Part shown: positions 1 through 28,439 of the stretch, in pieces
Layout of the letters: each line of letters begins with the position of its first letter
Numbering within the stretch: position 1 is the first letter of the stretch
From: an uncultured Eubacteriales bacterium
Lineage (GTDB): Bacteria; Bacillota; Clostridia; Oscillospirales; CAG-272
Reading direction: 5' to 3'
DNA length: 31,771 nt
Assembly (NCBI GenBank): GCA_905210485.1
Contig: CAJLXA010000021.1
Location: 1-31,771 of the forward strand
Translations under genes and position numbers: made by a program
Notes under the pieces: generated by a model
Told to the model about the DNA's origin: nothing
What the model saw: only the letters and a program-made list of their open reading frames with translations
The model's database searches: none

Positions 1-1836
1 GGTTCCTTTAATATGGACATGAGAAGTGCATATATGGATACGGAACTGATGAAGCATTATATGTACGATCCGAATGACAACAACTCGCTTTCCCAAAACT
101 TTATCACAGACATAGCAGAAACAGGAGAACATACCATGCTGGTTGCCACCCTAAAAGGTATAAACCTTTATAATGCGTTGACAGACAATTTTGAGCGGAT
201 AAATAAAGATACCGGAGAAGGAGAAATCGTACAAAACACATTAAACTGTGACTTCGTAAACTGTCTGCTGACCGATGGTGACATTATCTGGGTAGGAACC
301 GAAGTGGGAGGGCTGAACAAGATGAGCCGCCGGATGCTGTTGGTACAAAACTATTATCATATTCCCACCATTCCCGGAAGTCTTTCCCAAAATCCCGTCA
401 ATGCCATTTATGAAGACCCGTCGGGTGTTTTATGGGTAGGAACCGTAGAAGGAGGTTTAAACCGGCGGGCTCCCGGCAGCAACACTTTTGAGCACTATAC
501 TACCGATGCACCCGCCCACCTAAGCCATAATACCGTCAGTTGTTTTACCAGCGATAACGATGGAAGGCTCTGGATAGGAACCTGGGGAGGAGGCATAGGA
601 TGGATAGACATGAAAAATCCGCAGAACAAACAATTCCACCACATAGAAATACCCGAATACGGAGACTTCTCATGGGGATGGGCCGGAAGTATCTGCTATG
701 ACCGCCTGAACCATGCTATCTGGGTAGGAACCAGTACCAATATCTATGTTTACGACTTGAAAACACAAACGCTCACCGAACCATTCAAGGGTATGAACCT
801 AGGTGGAATTGAAGGCTGTACAGGATACTATATAGATAAGGATAACCACCTGTGGCTGGGACTTACAGAAGGACTTTGCCGAATAGATCTAAGCAGTTTG
901 AAAGCCCCCAGACTGATTTATCAACTCTGGAGGATCAAGCTAGACGAACCGGAGTCAAAGTTAAAGGAAAGGGTAACCTACATCACCCAGTCTAAAGACG
1001 GAACCCTTTGGATAGGCAGCAACGGATATGGTTTCTACAAATCCTCACCAACAGAAAACGGAGAATATACCTTCCGCTCCTTCACCACCGAAGACGGACT
1101 GATAAACAACAGTGTCCGCTGCATATCGGAAGATAAAGAAGGGTATCTTTGGATTACCACCACCAACGGACTCTCCCGCTTCAATCCTAACAACAACAGC
1201 TTCTTCAACTATACCCGGAAAGACGGACTATTATCCAACCAGTTCTATTGGAACGCAATATGCCGTGCCGCCAATGGAGATTTGTATGTAGGAAGTACTA
1301 AAGGGCTGTCTGTAGTCAAACCAGTCATAGACACAAATCCCAAGGAGGCTGTTCCTCTGGCATTCACCCATGTTCGTGTGGCCAATGAAGAACGATTGTA
1401 CACAAACGGCACCCTACAGTTACACGAACGCGACAAATCTCTCTATATTGAATTTGCCGCACTGGATTATGATGCATCGACATTCGCCAATTATTATTAC
1501 CGCTTGAAAGGATTTGACGACAAATGGATAAAAGTACCGGCCAACAGACGACAAGCCGCCTATACCAATCTGCGTCCCGGCAACTATACTTTCGAACTGC
1601 GTTATGCCCCCGACGGCAAACAATGGCTGGAAGAAATGGCAGAACTCCACATTGCCGTATCACCTTATTTCTATAAAACCATCTGGTTCATTCTGTCCAT
1701 ATTGGTTCTTCTATCTTTCCTTATATATAAGGTATTATCATGGAGGCTTCGTTCGTTAAAAGAACAACAAGAAATGCTCCACATCAAAGTAGAGGAACGT
1801 ACCCGTGAACTGGAAGAACAGAAAAAACTGCTTTCC
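1..1836 (+). CDS. 5'-truncated fragment of a Bacteroidota-type hybrid two-component sensor: periplasmic beta-propeller repeats, Y_Y_Y domain, TM helix and the start of the coiled-coil linker. The kinase, receiver and AraC parts are absent.
   Basis: The frame is open from nt 1. Propeller repeats of the type G-LW-GT--GL recur ([52 protein letters not shown]). The Y_Y_Y region reads [15 protein letters not shown]...[16 protein letters not shown]. It is followed by the TM helix [16 protein letters not shown] and the coiled coil [26 protein letters not shown]+C and codon usage are visibly lower than in the rest of the window. Confidence 0.7.
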
Positions 1837-3039
1837 GCACTTCGCCGCGGCACCTATTTCAGCGCGGTGCTGATCGCCGTGGCCGCCCTGTTCATTGTGG
1901 GATTTGTTCTCGGCTGGGATAAGATTGGCCTGTATTTTGCCATTATCGCGGGTCTCGTGTCCGGCGTGCTGATCGGTGCGTTTACCGAATATTTCACGTC
2001 CGACACCTATAAACCCACGCAAAAACTCGCCGCCTCTTCCGAAACCGGCACTGCGACCGTCATTATCAGCGGGCTCGGACTCGGCATGCTTTCGACGCTG
2101 ATGCCGGTCATCATTATTGCGGCCTGTATTCTGGTAGCGTTCTTTGTATCGGGCGGTACGATCGCCGATCCCGCAATGGGACTTTACGGCATTGCCCTTG
2201 CGGCGGTCGGTATGCTCTCAACGCTCGGTATCACACTGGCAACGGACGCTTACGGTCCCGTTGCGGATAACGCGGGCGGCATTGCCGAAATGGCCGAACT
2301 CCCGCCCGAAGTACGCGAACGTACGGACGCGCTTGATTCTCTCGGTAACACGACCGCGGCCACAGGCAAAGGCTTCGCCATCGGTTCCGCCGCGCTGACA
2401 GCGCTGGCGCTGATCGCCTCCTATGTCGACAAAGTAAAAACGCTTTCCCCCTCCGCAAGTCTTTCGTTTGACCTTATGAATCCTTTGGTTCTCGTCGGTC
2501 TCTTTGTGGGCGCCTGCCTTCCCTTTATCTTTGCCGCGCTCACGATGGGCAGCGTTCACCGCGCCGCGCAGAGCATCGTTCTGGAAGTACGGCGGCAGTT
2601 CCGCGAGATTACGGGACTCATGGAAGGAAAGGCGCACGCGGATTATGCCGCCTGCGTCGATCTTTGCACGCGTTCTTCTCTTCGCGAAATGATCCTCCCG
2701 TCCGTCATCGCCGTGATTGTTCCGATCGTAGCAGGTCTTGTCCTCGGCTATCAGGGCGTTGTCGGTATGCTGGCCGGCGCAACGGCATCGGGTTTCCTGC
2801 TTGCCATCTTCATGTCCAATGCCGGCGGCGCGTGGGACAATGCGAAAAAATACGTGGAGAGCGGCCATCACGGCGGAAAAGGCTCCGAACAGCATAAGGC
2901 TACCGTTGTCGGCGATACGGTGGGCGATCCTTTCAAAGATACTTCGGGTCCGTCCATCAATATTCTGATCAAACTGCTTTCCATGGTATCCATTGTCTTT
3001 GCATATCTTGTCATCAACTTCAGCCTTCTCGGACGCTGA
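1837..3039 (+). CDS. hppA: C-terminal ~400 aa of a K+-dependent membrane-bound pyrophosphatase (H+/Na+-translocating PPase). The N-terminal half is missing and this part is fused in frame to the preceding fragment.
   Basis: Motifs present: [47 protein letters not shown] (Ala after GNTT is the K+-dependent class signature), [12 protein letters not shown] and [26 protein letters not shown] stop is followed by a strong terminator. Confidence 0.85.
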
Positions 3040-11338: not shown

Positions 11339-11833
11339 TCATTCCCCGCTCTTTTCGTTTGTATCGGCAATATCCGCAACCGTCGCGCGGATCAGTGATA
11401 TGAGATCCTGCGGCGATGTTTCTACCTGCGCACCGACGCGCCCGGCACTGTAACATATCCGCGGAAAAGTTTCCGCCAATGAATGAATGACCGTACGAAA
11501 GGCTTTTTTCATTCCGATGGGAGAACAGCCGCCGTGAATATATCCCGTAAGCGGTAAAAGTTCCTTTTGCTTTATCATTTCCACCGATTTGACGCCCACC
11601 GCTTTAGCCGCCCGTTTCAGATTCAGAGTGGAATTCACGGGAACGACGAAAACATAATGTGTTCCCGTGTTGGCGACCGTCACCAATGTCTTATAAGTAC
11701 TGTCGGGATTTTCTCCCAGCGTTTCGGCAATCGTCATACCGTCCGTAACGCTTCCGTCGTAATAATGCGGAATATAGGCTATCTTTTTTTGATCCAGCGT
11801 GCGCATCACGTTGGTTTTTTCAATTTTGTCCAT
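11339..11833 (-). CDS. ybaK: Cys-tRNA(Pro)/Cys-tRNA(Cys) deacylase YbaK/EbsC
   Basis: A YbaK-type sequence (NVMRTLDQKKIAY..., LTGYIHGGCSPIG). I prefer the ATG at 11833 because it has a GGGGGA RBS and a TAATG overlap with the upstream stop. The GTG at 11845 given in the ORF track has no RBS. Confidence 0.8.
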   Translation of the reverse strand: MDKIEKTNVMRTLDQKKIAYIPHYYDGSVTDGMTIAETLGENPDSTYKTLVTVANTGTHYVFVVPVNSTLNLKRAAKAVGVKSVEMIKQKELLPLTGYIHGGCSPIGMKKAFRTVIHSLAETFPRICYSAGRVGAQVETSPQDLISLIRATVADIADTNEKSGE

Positions 11834-12864
11834 TAAGTCCCCCACAATGCGATAAAATGATTGTCGTCAAAAATGCGTCTCCGATGCATAGCGGCGCAGA
11901 TTGCCGCCAGATTCTGCTCCGAATGAGCAAGTTCCCGCGTCATCAGGAGGCAGTTTTCTTTCAGAAGATCGCGTTCGCCGCCGGGCGTAAGCGCCATAAG
12001 AACGGTAGTGAAAAACAGCGGCACTTTCAGCATTTCCACGGCGCGTCCGTCATTGACCGCACGGAGAAAATATTGAAAGATCAGCATGGATAAGTACCGG
12101 CGGTAAAACCGATCTGCGTCTTTCGGCAAAGATTTCTTTTGGATATTTCCGCGAAAATTCTGCAAAAATGTAATCTTTCGTTTCCATTTTTTATTTAAAA
12201 TTTCAAGTTCCTGCAAAAAGCCACCCCACTGCCGCAATACCCTTTCGGGACGAAGCGTAACGTTTTTCGCGGCTATTGCAGATCGTTCTTTCTGTCGGTT
12301 CTGCCATGCGCGTACATTGGCCAGTATATTGCATACGACAGAAAAAAACGGTTTGTCACCGTTAAGCCGTCGCCACATTTCCGTGCGCAAAGACAGAAGC
12401 GCCCGATATTTATCCGGGTCAATATCATGCGGTTCCGGCAACGCATTATCCGTGTATTCCGTATAAGAAAAAGGTGCGTCGGTTTCATATAAAAGATCAA
12501 AAACGGCCGGGCAGGAAGCGTCCATCGCCACTTCGCGCACACCGCCGTATATTTCATAGAGGCGGGGATAGCGGCGGCATGTCTCCGCCAGAACGGATTC
12601 CCCGCATTGCCGATAAAGGCGGCACAATCCGTCCTTATCCCACATAGGGCAACTCCCGTCCGCGCGGGGAACAAATATACAGTCGCCGTCCGCGTCTACG
12701 GTCAGGTGATCGGCAACCGTTTTCAGTTCCGGATTTGCTATCGTACGAAAACGTGCGGCGGCCGCGGAATCAATCACGACCGTCCAACCGCGGCAACAGC
12801 TGTCCGGACATGCGCCGCGTAAACATGTAAAAAACCTATCTATATAAGATTCGCGTACTGTCAT
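11833..12864 (-). CDS. FliB/YkgJ-family cysteine-cluster protein (flagellin lysine-N-methylase-like)
   Basis: N-terminal CxxxxCC motif FTCLRGACPDSCCRGW, and later DGSCPMWDKDGLCRLYRQCG. The ATG at 12864 has an AAAGGA RBS, whereas the ATG at 12894 has none. Confidence 0.6.
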   Translation of the reverse strand: MTVRESYIDRFFTCLRGACPDSCCRGWTVVIDSAAAARFRTIANPELKTVADHLTVDADGDCIFVPRADGSCPMWDKDGLCRLYRQCGESVLAETCRRYPRLYEIYGGVREVAMDASCPAVFDLLYETDAPFSYTEYTDNALPEPHDIDPDKYRALLSLRTEMWRRLNGDKPFFSVVCNILANVRAWQNRQKERSAIAAKNVTLRPERVLRQWGGFLQELEILNKKWKRKITFLQNFRGNIQKKSLPKDADRFYRRYLSMLIFQYFLRAVNDGRAVEMLKVPLFFTTVLMALTPGGERDLLKENCLLMTRELAHSEQNLAAICAAMHRRRIFDDNHFIALWGT

Positions 12865-13102
12865 GATTATCCTTTCGGAAACGATTTTCCCCATGGCGCT
12901 GTCATATCACTTTCGGAGCTTCAAAGCCATACGTCTCGTCCTGTCGGTATACAACGTCAAGAATTTGCCGCGATAACGGCGGTTTCTCTCTTTCAGCGAA
13001 AAACATTTTTCCAAAGAAAGGCGCCGCTTCGGAAAACGGTCGACCGCAATCCGTATTCACGAAACATGAATTTTTACGGATAACCGCGCATGAGCGGTCA
13101 TG

Positions 13103-13155
13103 AAGCACCGTTCCATGCCCCATATGCGCCCAAAACCCTTGCAAGCAAGTTTTCT
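13103..13155. repeat. Copy A of a ~54-nt intergenic direct repeat
   Basis: AAGCACCGTTCCATGCCCCATATGCGCCCAAAACCCTTGCAAGCAAGTTTTCT. It matches copy B apart from a few substitutions and a 2-nt indel. Confidence 0.85.
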
Positions 13156-13294
13156 TCCATGCACCGTTTTCATGCCGACCGACGTGTTTATGCACAATGC
13201 CGAAGTGTGTACCGCTTTTTTTCTTATATTATAACATGGACCGCGGAAAAATTATTTTCCGGCAACTGCCATTGCTACGCGCTTTCCAAAAGGA

Positions 13295-13349
13295 AAGCAC
13301 CGTTCCATGTTGCAATATGCGCTCGAAAACCCTTGCAAGCAAGTTTTCT
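13295..13349. repeat. Copy B of the ~54-nt intergenic direct repeat
   Basis: AAGCACCGTTCCATGTTGCAATATGCGCTCGAAAACCCTTGCAAGCAAGTTTTCT. A shorter third echo, TTGCAAGCATTTTCT, lies at 13380-13394. Confidence 0.85.
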
Positions 13350-13361
13350 CGCTTATATTAT
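13333..13361 (+). promoter_or_regulatory. Sigma-70-type promoter embedded in repeat copy B, pointing at the large secreted-protein gene
   Basis: TTGCAA (13333-13338), a 17-nt spacer, then TATTAT (13356-13361). A second similar module is TTGCAA (13380-13385), 17 nt, TTTAAT (13403-13408). Confidence 0.4.
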
Positions 13362-13643
13362 AGCAAACAGCTCCGGGTTTTGCAAGCATTTTCTACATTA
13401 TATTTAATGGGGGTTTTCAAGACCATCGCGGAACACCGTAAATCGCCTGCACTCCCGTTATGTCGATAATCGATAAATCATGGTTTTTGATACAAATTCT
13501 TAATAATTTGTTCTGTTTTACCAAATATTATGAAAACTAAAATATTTTTTTATATATATTCTACAAATTGTACTTGTTTTAAGATAAAAATATGTTACCA
13601 TATAATCGGCAGGACGCCAAATATTAAAGAAAGAGGAAGTACT

Positions 13644-19785: not shown

Positions 19786-19814
19786 ATTATAGCATATACA
19801 TTCTGAAAATGCAA
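19786..19814 (-). promoter_or_regulatory. Sigma-70-type promoter of rpmB
   Basis: On the minus strand: TTGCAT, a 17-nt spacer, then TATAAT. Confidence 0.55.
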
Positions 19815-19854
19815 GAGAATTTTTCGTATTTTTTTCTTAATTCCGAAAAATTTA

Positions 19855-19883
19855 TTGATTTTTATCGAAGGATATGCTACAAT
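19855..19883 (+). promoter_or_regulatory. Sigma-70-type promoter of the small membrane-protein gene
   Basis: TTGATT (19855-19860), a 17-nt spacer ending in TGC (extended -10), then TACAAT (19878-19883). Confidence 0.5.
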
Positions 19884-19923
19884 GGGAAAGCAAAACGGAA
19901 AAAACGCAAACAGGAGAACGCTT

Positions 19924-20106
19924 ATGAACAAAAAACTCATCATTGCGCTGGCTATTATCGCCGTATTGATCGTGGGCCTACTTATCACGCTCGCCTTATT
20001 AAATCAGAACCTGATTCTCGGTATTGCCGCGATTATTCTGTCACTTGCCGCCATTATCTGCGCTCTGATCCGCCCCGACAAACTGCTTTCGCAAGAAGAC
20101 AAATAA
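19924..20106 (+). CDS. Small hypothetical two-TM membrane protein (60 aa)
   Basis: The ATG at 19924 has an AGGAGA RBS. There are two hydrophobic helices (LIIALAIIAVLIVGLLITLALL and ILGIAAIILSLAAIICALI). The upstream ATGs of the track ORF lie inside or ahead of the predicted -10 element. Confidence 0.45.
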   Translation: MNKKLIIALAIIAVLIVGLLITLALLNQNLILGIAAIILSLAAIICALIRPDKLLSQEDK

Positions 20107-20138
20107 GAAAAGACCGCAACGGCGGTCTTTTCTTTTAC
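20107..20138. terminator. Bidirectional terminator between the small membrane-protein gene and the blaI-like gene
   Basis: An 11-bp stem, GAAAAGACCGC / GCGGTCTTTTC, with a 4-nt loop, then TTTT. Confidence 0.8.
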
Positions 20139-20497
20139 TCTGCTTTCTCCCGATGGGCGTCGATCAGGCGTTTCAGCGAACGGGCCTCCCTGTCGGTCAG
20201 GGTAACGCCGCGAAGCGCCGCGGAAAGAAGATCGGGTAGCGAATGTGAAAAAGCGGGCGCTATCCGCACGCGGTATTCTTCTGCCAACACTTCCTCGCGC
20301 GGAACGGTCGCCGTAACAACGGCGTCACGATTGGAAAGATAACCGCCGTCGCATAGTTTTTTCAGAACGGTATAGGTGGTCGTGCGCTTCCAGCCGAGAA
20401 CCCCGGCGACGCGCGCCGTCAGTTCCCGGGAAGAAAGCGGCTCGTTTTCCCATACGATATTGAGAATACAAAACTCGCAGTCAGACAGTTTTTTCAT
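20135..20497 (-). CDS. BlaI/MecI/CopY-family winged-helix transcriptional repressor
   Basis: 120 aa with the N-terminus LSDCEFCILNIVWENEPLSSRELTARV...WKRTTTYTVLKKLCDGGYL typical of Penicillinase_R family proteins. Confidence 0.8.
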   Translation of the reverse strand: MKKLSDCEFCILNIVWENEPLSSRELTARVAGVLGWKRTTTYTVLKKLCDGGYLSNRDAVVTATVPREEVLAEEYRVRIAPAFSHSLPDLLSAALRGVTLTDREARSLKRLIDAHREKAE

Positions 20498-21124: not shown

Positions 21125-22738
21125 TCAAAGCGTGATCTTATCGGTTCCGTGTTCTTTTTTATACTGCACGAAATCTTCATACTTACCGCTGTAATCAAAA
21201 ATACCGTCGGGGCGGATCTCAATAATGCGGTTGGCTACGGTATTCACAATCTCGTAGTCGTGAGACATAAACATCACGTTTCCGCGGAAATCGGAAAGAC
21301 CGTTGTTCACCGCCGTAATGGATTCGAGGTCAAGATGGTCGGTCGGACGGTCAAGGATCAGCATATTGGAACCGAAAAGCATCATGCGTGAAAACATGCA
21401 ACGCACTTTCTCGCCGCCGGACAGCACGTTGACGGGTTTGAAAATCGCGTCGCCGGAAAACAGCATACGTCCGAGGAAACCGCGGAGATACGTCTCCGTT
21501 GTGTCCTTGGAATAACGGCGCATCCAGTCAAGAATGGAGTCGGTGCAACCGTTGAAATACGCGCTGTTGTCATGCGGAAAATACGACGTGGTAATGCTGA
21601 CGCCCCATTTATACGACCCGGCCGCCGGTTTCACTTCGCCCATCAGGATACGGAAAAGCGCCGTAATGGCCATTTCGTTACCGACAAAAGCGATTTTATC
21701 GTTCTTTTGTACAGTAAAGCTTACATTTTTAAACAATTCCGTGCCGTCTTCGGCAGTAGCCGCAAGGTCATTGACAAACAGAATATCTTTGCCCGCTTCA
21801 CGATCCATGTCAAATCCGATAAACGGATAGCGGCGGGAGGAAGCCGGCATTTCTTCGATCGTCAGTTTATCCAGGAGTTTCCGACGTGAGGTTGCCTGAC
21901 GCGACTTTGACTTATTGGCGGAGAAACGGGAAATGAACGTCTGAAGTTCTTTGATCTTCTCTTCATTCTTCTTATTCTGCTGTTTCATCATGCGCTGAAT
22001 AAGCTGTGACGATTCGTACCAGAATTCATAGTTACCGACGTACATTTTAATACCGCTGTAATCAATATCGACGATATTGGTGCAGACGTCGTTCAGGAAA
22101 TGCCGGTCATGGGAAACGACGAGAACCGTGCCGAAATAATCGGAAAGAAAGTCTTCCAGCCACATGGTCGCGTCAATATCAAGACCGTTTGTCGGTTCAT
22201 CGAGGAGAATAATATCGGGATTTCCGAACAGCGCCTGTGCCAGCAGGACTTTCACCTTTTCCGGCTCCTTTAACAGTTTCATTTCACTGTACAGAAGCGA
22301 TTCGTCAAGGCCGAGCCCCTGAATGAGCTTGGAAGCGTCCGATTCGGCTTCCCAGCCGTTCATTTCCGCAAATTCCCCTTCCAGCACCGCCGCGCGCGCG
22401 CCGTCTTCATCGGTAAAATCTTCTTTTGCATAGAGCGCGTCTTTTTCTTTCATTACTTCGTAAAGATGCTGGTTGCCCTGCATAATGGTATCAAGGACCG
22501 TGAAATCATCATAGGCAAAGTGATCCTGACGAAGAACCGACATCCGGACGGTATCGGGAATTGAAACTTCGCCGGTTGACGGTTCAAGTTCACCGCAAAG
22601 CAGTTTGAGAAAAGTGGATTTTCCCGCGCCGTTCGCGCCGATAACGCCGTAGCAATTGCCGGGGGTGAATTTCAGATTGACATCTTTGAACAGAAGCTGT
22701 CCTCCGAAATGGAAACTCAGGTTGTTAACTGTTATCAT
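21125..22738 (-). CDS. ABC-F family ATPase (YbiT-like, soluble, two NBDs, no TM domain) with a degenerate second nucleotide-binding domain
   Basis: NBD1 has Walker A GANGAGKST and Walker B IILLDEPTNGLD. The inter-domain linker reads RFSANKSKSRQATSRRK. NBD2 has the signature LSGGEKVR, but its Walker A is GNEMAITA and its Walker B is MLILDRPTDHLD. Confidence 0.85.
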   Translation of the reverse strand: MITVNNLSFHFGGQLLFKDVNLKFTPGNCYGVIGANGAGKSTFLKLLCGELEPSTGEVSIPDTVRMSVLRQDHFAYDDFTVLDTIMQGNQHLYEVMKEKDALYAKEDFTDEDGARAAVLEGEFAEMNGWEAESDASKLIQGLGLDESLLYSEMKLLKEPEKVKVLLAQALFGNPDIILLDEPTNGLDIDATMWLEDFLSDYFGTVLVVSHDRHFLNDVCTNIVDIDYSGIKMYVGNYEFWYESSQLIQRMMKQQNKKNEEKIKELQTFISRFSANKSKSRQATSRRKLLDKLTIEEMPASSRRYPFIGFDMDREAGKDILFVNDLAATAEDGTELFKNVSFTVQKNDKIAFVGNEMAITALFRILMGEVKPAAGSYKWGVSITTSYFPHDNSAYFNGCTDSILDWMRRYSKDTTETYLRGFLGRMLFSGDAIFKPVNVLSGGEKVRCMFSRMMLFGSNMLILDRPTDHLDLESITAVNNGLSDFRGNVMFMSHDYEIVNTVANRIIEIRPDGIFDYSGKYEDFVQYKKEHGTDKITL

Positions 22739-22770
22739 GGCATACTTCCTTATTTTTTATCTCAGACGTT

Positions 22771-22799
22771 ATTGTATCATATATTTTATAACGGGTCAA
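22771..22799 (-). promoter_or_regulatory. Sigma-70-type promoter of the ABC-F gene
   Basis: On the minus strand: TTGACC, a 17-nt spacer, then TACAAT, about 30 nt upstream of the ATG. Confidence 0.55.
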
Positions 22800-22906
22800 G
22801 GGAAAAAGCAAAATTTCGTTTTTTATCCGGAAAGTCCGCCTTTCCGCGGCGCCGTCACCAAAAACACCGTTTCCGGACAAAGATACAAAAGTGCGTACGG
22901 ACCTTC

Positions 22907-22935
22907 TTGACTTCCGCCGCCGAAAATGATATACT
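22907..22935 (+). promoter_or_regulatory. Sigma-70-type promoter of rlmD
   Basis: TTGACT (22907-22912), a 17-nt spacer, then TATACT (22930-22935). An alternative -10, TATAAT, lies at 22940-22945. Confidence 0.5.
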
Positions 22936-22982
22936 TCATTATAATGAATGAAACGCGGCGGATGCGCCGGGAAGGATACTCC

Positions 22983-24362
22983 GTGGAACTGAAAAAGAAT
23001 CAGACAGTAACATTAACCGTAGACGGTATGAACGACTTCGGCAACGGCGTTGCCCGCGCGGACGGCAAAACCGTTTTTGTCACAGGCGCCGTGGAGGGCG
23101 ACACCGTAACGGCGCAGATCATCAAGGTAACGCCCGGCTACGCTGTGGCGCGCTGTACGGAAGTCCTCATTCCCTCTCCTTTCCGCGTCGACCCGCTGTG
23201 CCGCGCCGCGGGGTGCGGCGGCTGTACCTACCGCGCGCTTTCCTACGAACGGGAGAAAATAACCAAGGAAAACGACGTGCGTTTTGCTTTCCGCAAGGCC
23301 GGACTCCCCGACGTCAAAGTACTGCCGCTTGTTTCTGCGGGCAGAACCGAGGGATACCGTAACAAAGCGCAGTTCCCCGTTGCGCCGGATAAAAACGGCG
23401 ACCCCGTTGCCGGATTCTATGCGCCGAAAAGTCATCGCGTAGTTCCCGCCGCCGACTGTCGGTTGCAGTCCCCCGCCTTTTCCCCGATCGTCTCCCGCCT
23501 CCTCGTTTTTTTCCGTGAAAACGGCATTACCGCATACCGCGAGGAGACCGGCACGGGCGACGTCCGGCATCTGTATTTGCGCTGTAACTGCGACGCGTCC
23601 GAAATTCTGCTCACCATTGTCGTGAACGGCCGCACACTGCCGCACGAAAAAGAACTCTGCGCGATGTTGCAGACCGATTTTCCGGCGATCGTCGGCGTTG
23701 TTATCAATGAAAACCGTGAAAATACCAATGTGATCTGCGGGAAACACTACCGCCTGCTGTACGGCAAAGCCTCCGTTACGGATACGCTGTGCGGCATCAG
23801 ACTGACAGTGGCGCCGCAATCTTTTTATCAGGTAAACCATGACGCGGCGGAGCTTCTCTATCGGAAAGCGGCCGCGCTTGCCGGACTGACAGGCGACGAG
23901 ATACTGCTCGATCTGTACTGCGGGATCGGTTCCATCGGTCTCACCATGGCCGACCGGGTAAAACTGCTTGTCGGTATTGAAATCATTCCGGAAGCCGTGG
24001 AATGTGCGAAAGAAAACGCCGCGCAAAACGGTATAAGCAACGCCCGTTTTTTCTGCGGCGACGCCGCCAATGCCGAAAATCTCCTGAAAGAAGCGGAAAA
24101 ATCTCTCGGGAAAATCGTCCCTGACGTTGTTATTCTGGATCCGCCCCGCAAAGGGTGCGACGGCGCTCTCATCTCTTTCATCATGGATCGTCTCTCGCCG
24201 AAACGTATTGTATACATTTCCTGCAATCCCGATACGCTGGCGCGCGACGTTACCCTTTTCTCCGGAAAGTATACTGTCGGCGATGTAACCCCGGTCGACC
24301 TGTTCCCCCGCACCGGTCACGTTGAGGCGGTAGTCTGCCTCGAACGGCGACCAGACAGCTAA
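22983..24362 (+). CDS. rlmD: 23S rRNA (uracil-C5)-methyltransferase RlmD/RumA (TRAM domain, 4Fe-4S cluster, SAM methyltransferase)
   Basis: The TRAM-like N-terminus is LKKNQTVTLTVDGMNDFGNGVAR. The Fe-S cysteines are CRAAGCGGCTY. The SAM motif is LDLYCGIGSIGL and the catalytic motif is YISCNPDTLARD. I place the start at the GTG at 22983 (GGAAGGA RBS, 6-nt spacing). The ATG at 22926 in the track lies inside the predicted promoter. Confidence 0.85.
   Translation: MELKKNQTVTLTVDGMNDFGNGVARADGKTVFVTGAVEGDTVTAQIIKVTPGYAVARCTEVLIPSPFRVDPLCRAAGCGGCTYRALSYEREKITKENDVRFAFRKAGLPDVKVLPLVSAGRTEGYRNKAQFPVAPDKNGDPVAGFYAPKSHRVVPAADCRLQSPAFSPIVSRLLVFFRENGITAYREETGTGDVRHLYLRCNCDASEILLTIVVNGRTLPHEKELCAMLQTDFPAIVGVVINENRENTNVICGKHYRLLYGKASVTDTLCGIRLTVAPQSFYQVNHDAAELLYRKAAALAGLTGDEILLDLYCGIGSIGLTMADRVKLLVGIEIIPEAVECAKENAAQNGISNARFFCGDAANAENLLKEAEKSLGKIVPDVVILDPPRKGCDGALISFIMDRLSPKRIVYISCNPDTLARDVTLFSGKYTVGDVTPVDLFPRTGHVEAVVCLERRPDS
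24318..24359. repeat. Left copy of the 42-nt direct repeat (attL-like); it forms the present 3' end of rlmD
   Basis: CACGTTGAGGCGGTAGTCTGCCTCGAACGGCGACCAGACAGC matches 25768-25809 at 39 of 42 positions. Confidence 0.9.
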
Positions 24363-24385
24363 CGAGTGAAGTTGCTACGCAGTGA

Positions 24386-24622
24386 AGTTTCGGTTATCGC
24401 CGAAGTGAAGTTTGCGCCGCAAGCAAGGCTGATTTTATAAATAAACTTCATATCGCACTCAAAGGGTGCAGTGAAACCGAATATTGGATTGAAATGCTTG
24501 TGGGCTCAAATGCGATAAGTGAGCAAATATCAAAGGAGCTTTTGCAAAAGTGTGGCGTTATCCGTCGTATGCTTGTGAAATCCATCACCACCGCAAAAGT
24601 CAACCCCGACGGCCAAGAGTAA
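24386..24622 (+). pseudogene. 5'-truncated four-helix-bundle protein gene (23S rRNA intervening-sequence protein / Avd-like family, PF05635-type)
   Basis: The frame reads ...ASKADFINKLHIALKGCSETEYWIEMLVGSNAISEQISKELLQKCGVIRRMLVKSITTAK-stop, matching the family's C-terminal SKADFI-KL-IALKE--ET-YWLELL pattern. There is no in-frame start, a TGA lies just upstream at 24383-24385, and the N-terminal ~half is missing. Confidence 0.6.
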
Positions 24623-24638
24623 ATTGAGAGGTTACTTT

Positions 24639-25700
24639 ATGGAACAAGAGCAGAAAAACATTGTCGAAGCAATTGCAGAAACCATAAGCAATGCTGTCGG
24701 TAACGGCGAAGAATTTGTTGCTCCTTTAGCTACTTGGCAAACAAAAACTCCTACATCCAAGGTAATCAATGCGGCATATTCCGAAGAAATAAAAGAATAT
24801 TTAAAGGCGCCGGTTCCGGTCTGTAATAAAGCCGCATCGCTGAAGTTATTAAAGCGTTTCGCTCGAAAGGATTTTCGCGACTTTTGGACTACTCCCGTTG
24901 CGGAATATCTTCCTGCTGTCAGCGAAGGAACAATGAAGCTTTGCGAGCGTGTTTATCCACACGACCAGGCAATTTTCTATGCAAAAAAGCTGATTTCAAC
25001 ACTTTCACCAAAGGAACTGGCAAAGGATTTTCTTTACGGTGTAGCACACAACGCTCCCGAATACAGAACGACACTCGCTTGCTATTACTACATAAAAAAT
25101 TTGCCAGATCATGAATTTGAAAAGAAGTATGTTGGCGCTGTCGTGAGTAAGGACGGTGAATGGGAGGACAGACACCGAGAGAGCAAATGCGAAATCTGCG
25201 GATATGATCATGCAGTCAGTACAGAGCCTAAAATGCAATTCTGGCACATTAACGTTGACATGGAACATTTCTATTTCAAGTCGTCGGTTCCGTTCCGCTT
25301 CGATCTCAATACGGCAATCATATTTTTAGAGGAATATAAAAAGCTTCCGTGCCCCGAGCACTCGTTGACAGATTACAAGCATTTTATGAAAATCATTGAG
25401 GTAATAGAAAGCGCGCCGCTGAACACGACCCCGGGAAAACTACGCAAAGAATTAAAGCAATCCGGTTTTTTGACAATGACGATGGAGCAGATTGAGGCAT
25501 TTATCGATATGCTGGGGTATCTCAACATCTTGCACCCGAACGATTCCTTTGGCGTTACCGTCAAACACATCTGCGAAAGGGATATGCTACCGCCGCTTAG
25601 TGACAGAGGATATGCGGCTTACCCCGTAAATCGTTGGACACGTAAATACGGAATTGACTACGATAGTATTTCAATGCTTTTTGACGAGATTTACGAATAA
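24639..25700 (+). CDS. Hypothetical protein, 353 aa, no family recognised (cargo of the insert)
   Basis: The ATG at 24639 has a GAGAGG RBS 7 nt upstream. The frame is uninterrupted through AT-richer DNA. There is no signal peptide or TM helix. The only Cys pairs are CEICGYDH and LPCPEH. Confidence 0.6.
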   Translation: MEQEQKNIVEAIAETISNAVGNGEEFVAPLATWQTKTPTSKVINAAYSEEIKEYLKAPVPVCNKAASLKLLKRFARKDFRDFWTTPVAEYLPAVSEGTMKLCERVYPHDQAIFYAKKLISTLSPKELAKDFLYGVAHNAPEYRTTLACYYYIKNLPDHEFEKKYVGAVVSKDGEWEDRHRESKCEICGYDHAVSTEPKMQFWHINVDMEHFYFKSSVPFRFDLNTAIIFLEEYKKLPCPEHSLTDYKHFMKIIEVIESAPLNTTPGKLRKELKQSGFLTMTMEQIEAFIDMLGYLNILHPNDSFGVTVKHICERDMLPPLSDRGYAAYPVNRWTRKYGIDYDSISMLFDEIYE

Positions 25701-25767
25701 AAGTGAGACTTTTTGGAGTTACAACCCCCATTTTAAACCGATTTTTATACCTTTTAGAGTTATGACC

Positions 25768-25809
25768 CACGTTGAAGCGGTAGTCTGCCTCGAACGGCGA
25801 CCCGACAAC
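25768..25809. repeat. Right copy of the 42-nt direct repeat (attR-like); an orphan copy of the rlmD 3' end
   Basis: CACGTTGAAGCGGTAGTCTGCCTCGAACGGCGACCCGACAAC. Read in the rlmD frame it gives HVEAVVCLERRPDNR-stop (TGA at 25813-25815). Confidence 0.9.
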
Positions 25810-25908
25810 CGTTGAATCCCGTCATCAGGCGACGTGTGCATAAAAACGTGAACCGCGCCGCCGCTATACCGTTCCCCGCTTTGAAACCGTCATAAAACCA
25901 TGCCCCCG

Positions 25909-25953
25909 CACCGTCCGCACGGAAAATGCGGACGGTGTTCTTTTATTCTTTTT
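25909..25953 (+). terminator. Rho-independent terminator, probably the original rlmD terminator
   Basis: An 11-bp stem, CACCGTCCGCA / TGCGGACGGTG, with a 7-nt loop, then TTCTTTTATTCTTTTT. Confidence 0.85.
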
Positions 25954-25964
25954 CCCGGAATCTA

Positions 25965-25993
25965 TTAACACAGGCACAAAATCGTGATATACT
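25965..25993 (+). promoter_or_regulatory. Sigma-70-type promoter of the marR, kinase-like and MATE operon
   Basis: TTAACA (25965-25970), a 17-nt spacer, then TATACT (25988-25993). Confidence 0.45.
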
Positions 25994-26032
25994 ATCCTGC
26001 AAGTCCGAAATCGTACTAACGGAGTGTGAAAA

Positions 26033-26470
26033 ATGGAGATAAACCTGAGCAAACTCATGTACCGCGTGAACTGTCTCGCCTCCGACCTTGACGCATTGTA
26101 CCATCAGGCGGCCGTGAAACTGGGACTGTCGGACAGCGTTATGTTTGTGCTGTATCTCGTTTATGAAAAAGGATCCGGCTGTCCGCTGAACGATATCCGC
26201 AAAGCAACCAGCATCAGTAAGCAGACCATCAATTCCGCCATTCGGAAACTGGAAAACGAACAGATTGTTTATCTGGAATCGGGCGGCGGCAGAGCAAAAA
26301 CCGTGTGTCTTACGGAAAAAGGCAAAGAATATGTCGCCGGGACGATTGCGCGCCTGTTTCATGCGGAGTGCCGCGTTTTCGGCAAATGGACCGCAGAGGA
26401 GATCCATGAGTATCTGCGCCTTATGGAGAAATACAACAGCGACTTCCGGGAACAACTTGAAAAACTGTAA
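26033..26470 (+). CDS. MarR-family winged-helix transcriptional regulator
   Basis: 145 aa. The wHTH region is LNDIRKATSISKQTINSAIRKLENEQIVYLESGGGRAKTVCLTEKGKEY. A GGAG RBS is present. Confidence 0.75.
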   Translation: MEINLSKLMYRVNCLASDLDALYHQAAVKLGLSDSVMFVLYLVYEKGSGCPLNDIRKATSISKQTINSAIRKLENEQIVYLESGGGRAKTVCLTEKGKEYVAGTIARLFHAECRVFGKWTAEEIHEYLRLMEKYNSDFREQLEKL

Positions 26471-26481
26471 GGAGACCAACC

Positions 26482-27102
26482 ATGAATATCATCACCATCA
26501 GCCGGGAATTCGGCAGCGGCGGTCGGGAACTCGGAAAACGTCTTGCCGATTTTCTGGGATATGACTATTATGACAGCGAGATCATAGCCGCCGTAGCGCG
26601 GGAAAGCGGCATGGACGCGGATTATGTCGAAAACACGCTCAGCAATCACGGGTGGAAAAATCAGGCGATTACTTTTCGCGCAACGCTCGGTTCCACCGCT
26701 TACGTTCAGTCCTCCAAAGTGACTCTGCTTCTGAAACAGAAAGATGTGATAGAAAGCATTGCCGCTCTCGGAAAGGATTGCATCATTGTCGGACGTAACG
26801 CCGACGTAATCCTGCGCCTGTATCAGCCGTTCAATATTTTCGTCTGCGCAACGCAGGAGGCCAAACTGCGGCGTTGCCTTGAAAGAACGCCCGAAGGTGA
26901 AAAACTGACAGAAAAAGAACTGCTTCGTAAAATGAAACAGATCGACCGCGTTCGCTCGCAAACGCGGGAAATTCTCACCGGTTCTCCGTGGGGGAACCGG
27001 AATACGTATCAGTTGACCGTCAACACCACCGCATGGGAAATCAAAGACCTGGTACCCGCGGTTGCCGATTTCGCAACACGCTGGTTTGGGGGAAAACAGT
27101 GA
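26482..27102 (+). CDS. Cytidylate kinase-like family protein (Cytidylate_kin2-type P-loop protein)
   Basis: The N-terminus IITISREFGSGGRELGKRLADFLGYDYYDSEII is characteristic of the family. A GGAG RBS is present. Confidence 0.7.
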   Translation: MNIITISREFGSGGRELGKRLADFLGYDYYDSEIIAAVARESGMDADYVENTLSNHGWKNQAITFRATLGSTAYVQSSKVTLLLKQKDVIESIAALGKDCIIVGRNADVILRLYQPFNIFVCATQEAKLRRCLERTPEGEKLTEKELLRKMKQIDRVRSQTREILTGSPWGNRNTYQLTVNTTAWEIKDLVPAVADFATRWFGGKQ

Positions 27103-28439
27103 AACAACAAATTCAATTATCGGATCACTTCACATACAGACGTTTGATCCGCTTTACGTTGCCGTCCATCGGTATGATGATCTGCACTTCCGTATACAGT
27201 GTGGTTGACGGCTTTTTCGTGTCCAATTTTGCGGGGAAAACTCCCTTTGCGGCAGTCAATCTGATCATGCCTTTTCTTATGATCCTGTCCACCGTGGGCT
27301 TCATGTTCGGCACCGGCGGCTCCGCCATCGTGGCCAAAAACTTTGGCGAAGGGGACAGAGAAAAAGACAATCGCCATTTTTCCCTGTTCGTTTATACCGC
27401 CGCCGCGCTGGGCGTATTGTTTGCCGTTCTGGGAATCCTCTTTATCCGCCCGATCGCCATGCTTCTCGGCGCCGAGGGCGAAATGCTGAATAATGCCGTG
27501 CTGTACGCCCGGATTATTCTGACAGCGCTTCCGTTCAATGTGCTTCAGCTTCTGTTTCAGTCGTTCTTCGTAACCGCCGAAAAACCGAAAATGGGACTTA
27601 CCATCACGGTGATGTCGGGACTTACCAATATGATACTGGACGCCGCGCTCGTAACTCTTTTGCCGCCGGAACACAAACTGGCAGGGGCGGCCGTGGCAAC
27701 GGCGCTGAGCCAGGTGATCGGCGGCGCAGTGCCACTCTTGTATTTCGGACGGAAAAACAGCAGTATCCTCCGGCTGGGTCGCGCCCGCTTTGACGGAAAG
27801 GCCATTTTCAAGGCCTGCGCCAACGGCTCCTCGGAATTTATGAGCAACATCTCCATGAGCCTCGTGGGTATGCTCTATAACATACAGCTTTTAAGATATG
27901 CGGGGGAAAACGGCGTGGCCGCATACGGTGTGATGATGTATGTCAGCATGATTTTTTCGGCGGCCTTTGTGGGGTACTCCATCGGTACCGCTCCCGTTGT
28001 CGGGTATCACGACGGCGCCAAAAATTATACCGAACTGAAAGGATTATTGAGAAAAAGCCTTGTCATGATCGGAGGTTTCGGGATAGCCATGGTTGCCTCC
28101 GCCGAACTGCATTCCGTGCTGCTTGCAAAAATTTTTGTAGGGTATGACGCCGAACTGATGCAACTGACCGTTTCGGGATTCCGCATATTTGCCCTTTCCT
28201 TTATCTTTATGGGTTTTGCCATTTTCAGTTCCGGTTTCTTCACGGCGCTCAACGACGGCGTTACCTCCGCCATCATTTCTTTCCTGCGTACACTAGTCTT
28301 CCAGACCGCCGCCGTTATTCTGCTTCCCTTGATTTTTAAAATCCGCGGCGTCTGGATCTCTATTGTGATCGCGGAACTGATGGCCGTTATCTTTTCCGCA
28401 ATGTTCCTCATTATAAAACAAAAGAAATACCATTATTGA
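27099..28439 (+). CDS. MATE-family efflux transporter
   Basis: The GTG at 27099 overlaps the upstream stop (GTGA). The protein has 12 hydrophobic helices. The MATE-type N-terminus is LIRFTLPSIGMMICTSVYSVVDGFFVSNFAGKTPFAAVNL. Confidence 0.85.
   Translation: MKQQIQLSDHFTYRRLIRFTLPSIGMMICTSVYSVVDGFFVSNFAGKTPFAAVNLIMPFLMILSTVGFMFGTGGSAIVAKNFGEGDREKDNRHFSLFVYTAAALGVLFAVLGILFIRPIAMLLGAEGEMLNNAVLYARIILTALPFNVLQLLFQSFFVTAEKPKMGLTITVMSGLTNMILDAALVTLLPPEHKLAGAAVATALSQVIGGAVPLLYFGRKNSSILRLGRARFDGKAIFKACANGSSEFMSNISMSLVGMLYNIQLLRYAGENGVAAYGVMMYVSMIFSAAFVGYSIGTAPVVGYHDGAKNYTELKGLLRKSLVMIGGFGIAMVASAELHSVLLAKIFVGYDAELMQLTVSGFRIFALSFIFMGFAIFSSGFFTALNDGVTSAIISFLRTLVFQTAAVILLPLIFKIRGVWISIVIAELMAVIFSAMFLIIKQKKYHY

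Follow-up and report, generated by a model that had tools for sequence, protein, structure and literature searches.

An integrase-less cassette inserted at the 3' end of rlmD in an uncultured Eubacteriales bacterium and its cassette family in gut Clostridia

The rlmD locus and its insert

The 31,771-nucleotide (nt) stretch of DNA analysed in this study (referred to as the window) is contig CAJLXA010000021.1 of an uncultured Eubacteriales bacterium (GCA_905210485.1; CAG-272), and contains rlmD, encoding a RumA-family 23S rRNA uracil-5-methyltransferase, the 3' end of which is duplicated around a small insert. The gene was located at 22926..24362 (+ strand) as the longest open reading frame (ORF); gene calls in homologues begin at 22962 or 22983. 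Its product contained both domains expected of RlmD/RumA, TRAM (PF01938; 1e-10) and tRNA_U5-meth_tr (PF05958; 1e-21). Despite the insert, the ORF was complete and all domains were kept.

A preliminary description of this DNA, made from the sequence alone, had reported that the last 42 nt of rlmD recur with three mismatches, and this was the case: 39/42 positions were identical between 24318-24359 and 25768-25809 (mismatches: 24326/25776, G/A; 24353/25803, A/C; 24358/25808, G/A). The repeat was by far the longest and best in a 5-kb region, in which the next-best was only 29 nt at 72%, and a 39/42 match among ~10^7 position pairs has a chance of ~10^-11 by a rough estimate of our own, not computed with a tool. 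The left copy (24318..24359, + strand), an attL-like core with its tail, encodes the present RlmD C-terminus, HVEAVVCLERRPDS-stop, and aligns with the single copy in the empty site of a conspecific genome (L047; loci are denoted by L numbers). The right, attR-like copy, taken through its stop codon (25768..25815, + strand), is identical to the uninterrupted gene terminus of L047 and reads in frame as an alternative RlmD C-terminus, HVEAVVCLERRPDNR-stop, as originally noticed; it is the original rlmD terminus, now displaced.

The two copies are separated by 1408 nt, and the whole unit (24318-25767) comprises 1450 bp. The computed G+C content was 0.42-0.47 across 24450-25800 (~43% in the insert) and 0.53-0.62 in rlmD, in agreement with the AT-richer insert previously described. 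Directly behind the left copy is a truncated ladder resembling the Gut-1 RNA (24356..24416, + strand; weak RF01706 alignment of 16.4 bits), followed by a four-helix-bundle gene of the 23S rRNA intervening sequence (IVS) protein family (24428..24622, + strand; PF05635, 38.5 bits with a cut-off of 33.8; TIGR02436, 44.8 bits with a cut-off of 24). Since profile positions 52-108 of 109 alone are present, the latter is a fragment corresponding to the 3' half of the gene. The remainder is occupied by an intact ORF of 353 amino acids (aa) (24639..25700, + strand) and by two copies of a motif recognised by a motif scan and an alignment of 54 cassette ends: R1 (ACTTTTTGGAGTTACAACC; 25708..25726, + strand) and R2 (ACCTTTTAGAGTTATGACC; 25749..25767, + strand), the second of which abuts the core of the right repeat copy. 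An intrinsic terminator (25908..25938, + strand; a 12-bp stem with 8 G-C pairs, and a T-run) is located 93 nt beyond the right-copy stop, as it is beyond rlmD in the empty site L047, and a terminator scan found none on the + strand between the present rlmD stop and 25908; the terminator behind the second copy and the absence of one behind the present stop had both been correctly described. This terminator serves rlmD in the empty site, and would serve both rlmD and the insert in the window.

When both insert ORFs were scanned against Pfam, NCBIfam, PADLOC, and PHROG, the earlier view of their content (a truncated four-helix-bundle gene and one intact orphan ORF) was supported, and no integrase, relaxase, or transposase was detected in them, nor any match to PF00239 or PF07508. 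Integrase, resolvase, and transposase families were likewise not detected in the scanned cargo and flanking ORFs of other loci or in the other ORFs of the window.

The window RlmD belongs to a 90%-identity cluster of 18 members, within which conspecific proteins are 99% identical. Among the 15 members listed, nine terminated in ...RPDNR, four in ...RPDS (the window type), and one in ...RPDN (L001), and one was fused to a 100-aa extension. In three loci of the same species with the ...RPDNR terminus (L047, L086, and L087), rlmD directly joins the sequence corresponding to the terminator region 25810-25953, followed by MarR, which is the empty site sought on the basis of the preliminary description. 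For L047, this was read from BLAST, window 22001-24357 and 25768-27500 aligning at ~99% with an overlap of one repeat copy, and for L086 and L087 from gene order. The window insert is, thus, a genuine insertion at the rlmD 3' end. The site is also filled in L001, the ORF of which is 97% identical to that of the window.

Another locus of this species, L048, contained a different 2.17-kb element (11379-13547) inside the same rlmD core. It consists of the 100-aa C-terminal extension of RlmD, a protein with AbiJ_NTD3/NTD4, and a C-terminal stump (91 aa) derived from a large serine recombinase, which reads into ...NTVEAVVCLERRPDNR; its ends differ from those of the window insert in that they consist of a coding stump and lack R1-R2. 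Together with the empty sites, this element shows polymorphism at the rlmD site, where at least two kinds of element have inserted. A protein search seeded with the L048 stump gave 229 matches, stumps of 67-159 aa being common in gut metagenomes; the best 120 of these matches comprised such stumps only, with no full-length enzyme, and L084 was a bare scar without cargo.

Cassettes at the 3' ends of RumA-family genes

Homologues of the 353-aa ORF (183 in total) were found in metagenome-assembled genomes of gut Clostridia, and a scan of species-representative genomes yielded 42 loci. In the long subfamily, to which the window ORF belongs, the ORF was located downstream, and on the same strand, of a RumA-family methyltransferase gene in 20/20 species-level loci with enough upstream sequence; the same arrangement was found in L001, L002, and L004. 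The long-subfamily ORFs were 62-80% identical across loci, whereas the adjacent methyltransferases were 34-55% identical to the window RlmD. The neighbours downstream of these loci differed, and those upstream also varied (ABC-F, AraC, and others). Since the cargo is far better conserved than the host gene, these results indicate horizontal spread with a fixed target. A second, 327-aa subfamily was found in ordinary chromosomal contexts distant from rlmD, and an exhaustive profile search recovered 240 remote representatives, all uncharacterised, some of which are fused to Imm26 domains. The location of the 327-aa subfamily away from rlmD and the Imm26 fusions argue for the 353-aa ORF being cargo, and not a mobility function.

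Many loci contained 2-5 copies of a methyltransferase C-terminal fragment (HVESVVCL...stop). The target core is the HVE(A/S)VVCL-coding 3' end of rlmD, with the consensus CAYGTYGAGAGTGTCGTTTGTCT. The first core, which is the intact rlmD end, is without R motifs, and a conserved ~70-nt sequence precedes the later copies in almost every case. This cassette end contains direct motif copies, R1 (...ACCTTTTGGnnTTACAACC) and, 41 nt on, R2 (...ACCTTTTGnnnTCTTGACC), and R2 abuts the core directly: the R2|CAYGT junction was present in 54/54 distinct ends, and R2 was >90% conserved across these 54 right ends, which came from other genomes and metagenomes and bordered unrelated cargo. Within a locus, the left edge of the repeats was fixed at CAYGT and the right edge was variable (9-214 nt). 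Of the 41 core-to-core intervals, 40 were cassettes (256-3431 nt); the other (L026) ends at a second methyltransferase paralogue and was set aside. The arrays were co-oriented, with up to five cassettes per locus: cores, R motifs, and leaders (see below) were found essentially on the + strand only, with two stray minus-strand core matches, and 42 cargo ORFs were on the + strand vs 7, all small, on the - strand. When metagenomes were scanned with the R2-plus-CAYGT pattern, 33 further loci were obtained, in nearly all of which the match abutted an rlmD-type core; several contained the rlmD gene itself. On these sequence grounds, the window element is assigned to a family of minimal integrase-less cassettes at the 3' ends of RumA-family genes in gut Clostridia, the apparent unit of which is one or two co-oriented genes and a conserved, putative recombination site of ~100 bp (R1, R2, and core).

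Most of the cassettes with R1-R2 ends carried other genes and no copy of the 353-aa ORF. Their cargo included the NgoPII and MjaI restriction enzymes with their methylases, another N6/N4 methylase pair, a DUF4268/HSDR_N/PD-(D/E)xK-like protein, a ResIII helicase, four-helix-bundle genes, GNATs, hydrolases, small membrane proteins, many uncharacterised genes, and, judged by eye only, GIY-YIG-like genes. A leader of ~85 nt preceded the cargo genes in 16/40 cassettes; as it was confined to these, it was not essential, and its candidacy as a second arm of the recombination site was rejected. The sequence that opens this leader, GGGACAAATG..., also occurred just upstream of R1 in L014 (3700-3725), L052, and L070 (two sites), as if the start of a leader had been joined to a cassette end. 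In general, the modules left of the cargo gene were shuffled relative to the gene. The four-helix-bundle gene was often the first in a cassette, directly after the Gut-1 ladder (L009, 2722-3078; L011, 5565-5918; L014, 561-944; L015, 5521-5940; L016, 4447-4821; L045, 1306-1662; L051; and L081), a placement that recalls rRNA intervening sequences, in which such genes lie inside long stem-loops. Two RlmD homologues, P0135 (617 aa) and P0159 (575 aa), had extra C-terminal domains (GNAT; PF04266), suggestive of read-through that has fused rlmD to a cassette gene.

The layout of an intact cassette was provided by L011: core hairpin, Gut-1 ladder, four-helix-bundle gene, ~85-nt leader, ORF, and R1-R2. 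Alignment with L011 revealed two internal deletions in the window and L001: one of ~370 nt, which removed the 5' half of the four-helix-bundle gene together with the remaining ladder, and another that removed the leader. The intact relatives in L011, L009, and L016 are as small as the window cassette and also without a recombinase. By this comparison, the window copy is a single decayed cassette, relative to an intact cassette of the same family. Of the decayed or cis-mobilisable element (CIME) that had been proposed in the preliminary description, the decay therefore stands in this relative sense, whereas the larger, integrase-bearing element with these ends that a strict CIME, or decayed integrative and conjugative element (ICE), would call for was not found in the searches described below; the element looks like a member of a minimal-cassette family.

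The 353-aa protein gave no significant match in Pfam, NCBIfam, or PADLOC, chance-level matches only in PHROG (E-values, 0.11 and 0.33), and nothing in a profile search against Protein Data Bank (PDB) sequences. In the AlphaFold2 model (mean confidence score pLDDT, 73.7), it is predicted to be mostly α-helical with a CxxC β-hairpin, and a Foldseek comparison of this model with the PDB found no fold match (best E-value, 1.5). Invariant residues in the family were acidic residues, histidine, and CxxC. A PD-(D/E)xK-like pattern spotted by eye (D177...E196-x-K198) was discarded, the model giving it no support. An immunity-type role is possibly that of this protein.

The tail of the core had a structure of its own. 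In ~30 of the ~95 distinct cores, the rlmD tail codons were the reverse complement of the HVESVV codons, thereby forming gene-end hairpins of 13-17 bp with compensatory changes between variants (L009, 2471; L014, 369; L008, 5319; L011, 5268; L045, 1082; and ~25 more). The complement encodes tails such as KRQIQQ, RRLDN, and RKQ, at the non-conserved RlmD C-terminus. Since the tail was complementary even in copies directly after R2, the whole core appears to travel with the sequence on its right. The window core folds weakly (-9.1 kcal/mol).

The module behind hairpin-type cores matched the Gut-1 RNA (RF01706) at 29-52 bits, L055 exceeding the gathering score of 50 with 52 bits, and always began ~38-42 nt past the core (L011, 4235-4306, 5310-5384, and 7134-7209; L055, 118-190; L023, 4500-4579 and 5810-5889). 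The original description of Gut-1, from 2010, presented it as a non-coding RNA standing by itself and restricted to one habitat ("human gut only"; PMC2864571). In the present loci, this RNA accounts for only the 5' half of a longer palindromic ladder, which lies within cassettes immediately behind the rlmD stop: a 7-9-nt k-mer occurs 3-5 times with small variable hairpins between, and its exact reverse complement then follows 3-4 times. Five k-mer families were distinguished (GCGATAT, AGTGAAG, ATGAATT, CGTGATA, and TCGATAT), and the ladder regions folded far better than shuffled sequences (z, ~ -6.7). The window retains AGTGAAG(TT) three times (24365, 24381, and 24404), with a small hairpin after each, and has lost the reverse-complement half, intact ladders being found in L002, L011, L045, L055, and L060; its Gut-1 alignment was below the gathering score, and Rfam at normal sensitivity gave nothing relevant on the window region.

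Putative mechanism of cassette accretion and its alternatives

We regard site-specific accretion by a recombinase acting in trans, of the tyrosine or large serine class, as the probable origin of these arrays. A recombinase encoded elsewhere would pair the R2-core site of a cassette with either the rlmD core or one of the cores that the array already contains, and strand exchange would occur at or beside CAYGT. By an exchange at this point, the incoming cassette would supply the last 11-15 rlmD codons and the stop, and the old terminus with its terminator would be pushed downstream. The fixed left edge of the repeats and the hairpin tails after R2 point to the R2|CAYGT edge as the junction, and to each cassette carrying its own replacement of the last 11-15 rlmD codons. 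Folding of R1-R2-core was no better than that of shuffled sequences on either strand (z, -1.5 to +0.05), suggesting a duplex site recognised by its sequence, and not an attC-type hairpin. The cassette genes are probably read through from rlmD, because no terminator precedes them. The footprint in the window had initially been taken as that of site-specific integration; its insertion part is established by the empty sites, and the site-specific recombination is what we infer from the conserved ends.

Several observations weigh against this explanation. Both repeat copies of the window are host-like over the 42 nt, and related cassettes elsewhere carry ...RRLDN-type cores, so that a single crossover with a typical cassette would be insufficient; what would be needed is gene conversion, homologous exchange within the species, or a donor whose core is host-like. 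Homologous recombination would also account for the host-type repeats of L002, L015, and L023, which are long (118-214 nt at 96-99%). Of the search proposed in the preliminary description, the shared ends were found elsewhere (the 54 distinct R1-R2-core right ends), and the larger, integrase-bearing elements were not: no R1-R2-core element with a recombinase was found in the 87 loci, IMG/VR, PLSDB, or the phage collection, and there were neither circular cassette contigs nor terminal overlaps in the 87 loci. The single end-motif match in IMG/VR (L085) was dismissed as a chance-level look-alike without the core. No recombinase was present among the 25 top Pfam families listed for 86 flanking and cargo proteins, behind which a weak match could be hidden, and genes of the intI or ccr type adjoining the arrays were not found within the flanks.

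A rival explanation dispenses with a dedicated recombinase; in this view, RecA-dependent homologous recombination stacks cassettes, after transformation or conduction, between conserved segments (core, ~25-35 nt; leader, ~85 nt; R1-R2, ~70 nt) maintained by hitch-hiking or by a role in expression. It accommodates the long host-type repeats, the host-like window copies, the shuffled modules left of the cargo gene, and the negative recombinase searches, and homologous recombination has been documented for elements at the streptococcal rum locus (PMC13651849). On the other hand, the host methyltransferases are only 34-55% identical, leaving the ~25-nt core as the sole shared target and, therefore, a poor RecA substrate, and arrays of unrelated cassettes have just 9-34 nt in common. 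The invariant R2|CAYGT junction and the >90% conservation of a non-coding sequence indicate, instead, a site recognised by a protein, and we consider an origin by RecA unlikely. A strict CIME, namely, the remnant of an ICE, an integrative and mobilisable element (IME), or a prophage whose integrase at rlmD was deleted, was judged quite improbable. The two internal deletions of the window copy are in line with decay; the same species offers a true example in L048, with its serine-recombinase stump and AbiJ cargo at the same core; such stumps are widespread; and serine-integrase IMEs are known to target rumA (PMC5704250). Nevertheless, the L048 element has different ends, the intact cassettes of L011, L009, and L016 are equally small and without a recombinase, and one compact architecture with unrelated cargo in 40 cassettes is not expected of independent decay.

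The orphan fold of the 353-aa protein, the invariant acidic, histidine, and CxxC residues, and the strict association of the long subfamily with the rlmD site may suggest that this protein itself is the mobilising agent, either a new recombinase or a homing nuclease. This is very improbable given that most cassettes with the same ends contain no copy, that the 327-aa subfamily is found away from rlmD in ordinary contexts, and that Imm26 immunity domains are fused to some remote relatives. Apart from the repeat itself, nothing speaks for a local duplication or an ancestral arrangement without insertion; this reading is refuted by the conspecific empty sites, and the fall in G+C of ~10-15 points and the occurrence of the same cargo and ends in distant hosts leave it with practically no likelihood. 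Thus, accretion by a recombinase acting in trans is the explanation that we retain. As a wider and tentative proposal, to which we attach limited confidence, the cassettes may form an integron-like gene-capture system in gut Clostridia, with docking at the rlmD end, R1-R2-core cassettes of 0.26-3.4 kb, a dedicated recombinase elsewhere, and Gut-1 and IVS-protein genes as accessory modules.

Relation to known systems and other features of the window

In streptococci, prophages, ICEs, and serine-integrase IMEs all use the gene rum/rumA/rlmD as an integration hot spot (PMC5704250, PMC13651849), and the preliminary description was correct in naming it as a target. The serine-recombinase IMEs and prophages share the hot-spot gene family with the cassettes, and L048 contains an element of this kind in the identical core; however, they encode a recombinase, and the described IMEs disrupt rumA internally, whereas the window element is without a recombinase and leaves rlmD intact. 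The closest analogues of the cassettes are CIMEs, ccr-less staphylococcal cassette chromosome (SCC) elements at rlmH, and integron cassettes.

In the ICESt1/ICESt3 family, CIMEs are an established concept, as is tandem accretion at the target-gene 3' end (PMC5704250). The likeness consists of attL/attR-like repeats of the target 3' end, regeneration of the target ORF, tandem accretion at one site, and, in the window element, the absence of integration and transfer genes (excisionase, relaxase, and conjugation included). CIMEs are defined, however, as decay products of ICEs or IMEs that share att sites with a known autonomous element, whereas the present cassettes are not known to have an autonomous relative, are minimal, contain one or two genes, and have a common, engineered-looking R1-R2 end. 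SCC and ccr-less pseudo-SCC elements of staphylococci also target, and leave intact, the 3' end of a 23S rRNA methyltransferase gene, rlmH (orfX); direct repeats bound their units, composite tandem islands occur, and many units are recombinase-less and carry defence genes (10.1101/336396; PMC11470126). The gene here is rlmD and not rlmH, the phylum-level group of the host and the site sequence differ, neither the window nor the cassettes contain ccr, and the cassettes are 0.26-3.4 kb vs tens of kb, so that this likeness is by analogy only. The sole trace of a serine recombinase was the L048 stump, in an element with different ends.

Integron arrays and clusters of attC sites lacking integron-integrases (CALINs) resemble the present arrays in their small, co-oriented, mostly single-gene cassettes with a terminal site of ~100 bp and no internal recombinase, in a cargo rich in defence and uncharacterised genes, and in expression probably from an upstream promoter. 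They differ in that the site of rlmD cassettes is conserved in sequence and is not an imperfect hairpin of the attC type (R''-L''/L'-R'), that no intI and attI are found beside the rlmD array, and that docking takes place inside the 3' end of a housekeeping gene. To our knowledge, integron-like cassette stockpiles have not been described in Firmicutes, and no report of rlmD-borne cassette arrays in Clostridia emerged from our literature search. With regard to Gut-1, the k-mer/hairpin module behind hairpin-type cores matches this RNA; it is not free-standing here, but forms the 5' half of the ladder in cassettes, the window copy being a truncated remnant.

If the proposed system is true, compact cassettes anchored to a housekeeping gene would open a new way for gut anaerobes to exchange defence and other accessory genes. 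The cassettes offer an enriched and easily harvested source of small uncharacterised genes located beside restriction-modification and immunity-like proteins. The Gut-1 RNA motif, an orphan since 2010, gains a genomic home in cassettes, and the rlmD/rumA 3' core is a landing pad common to at least two unrelated element types. In annotation, such cassettes account for short "alternative C-terminus" fragments and odd RlmD fusion proteins in metagenome-assembled genomes.

Elsewhere in the window, two more ORFs were without a Pfam match: 11833-12894 (- strand; 353 aa) and 19809-20342 (+ strand; 177 aa). At 13-3039 (+ strand), a 1008-aa ORF combines propeller repeats of the two-component-regulator type (Reg_prop and Y_Y_Y) with an H+-pyrophosphatase portion that covers the C-terminal two thirds (profile positions 254-645 of 645), and is either an odd fusion or an artefact of the window edge.

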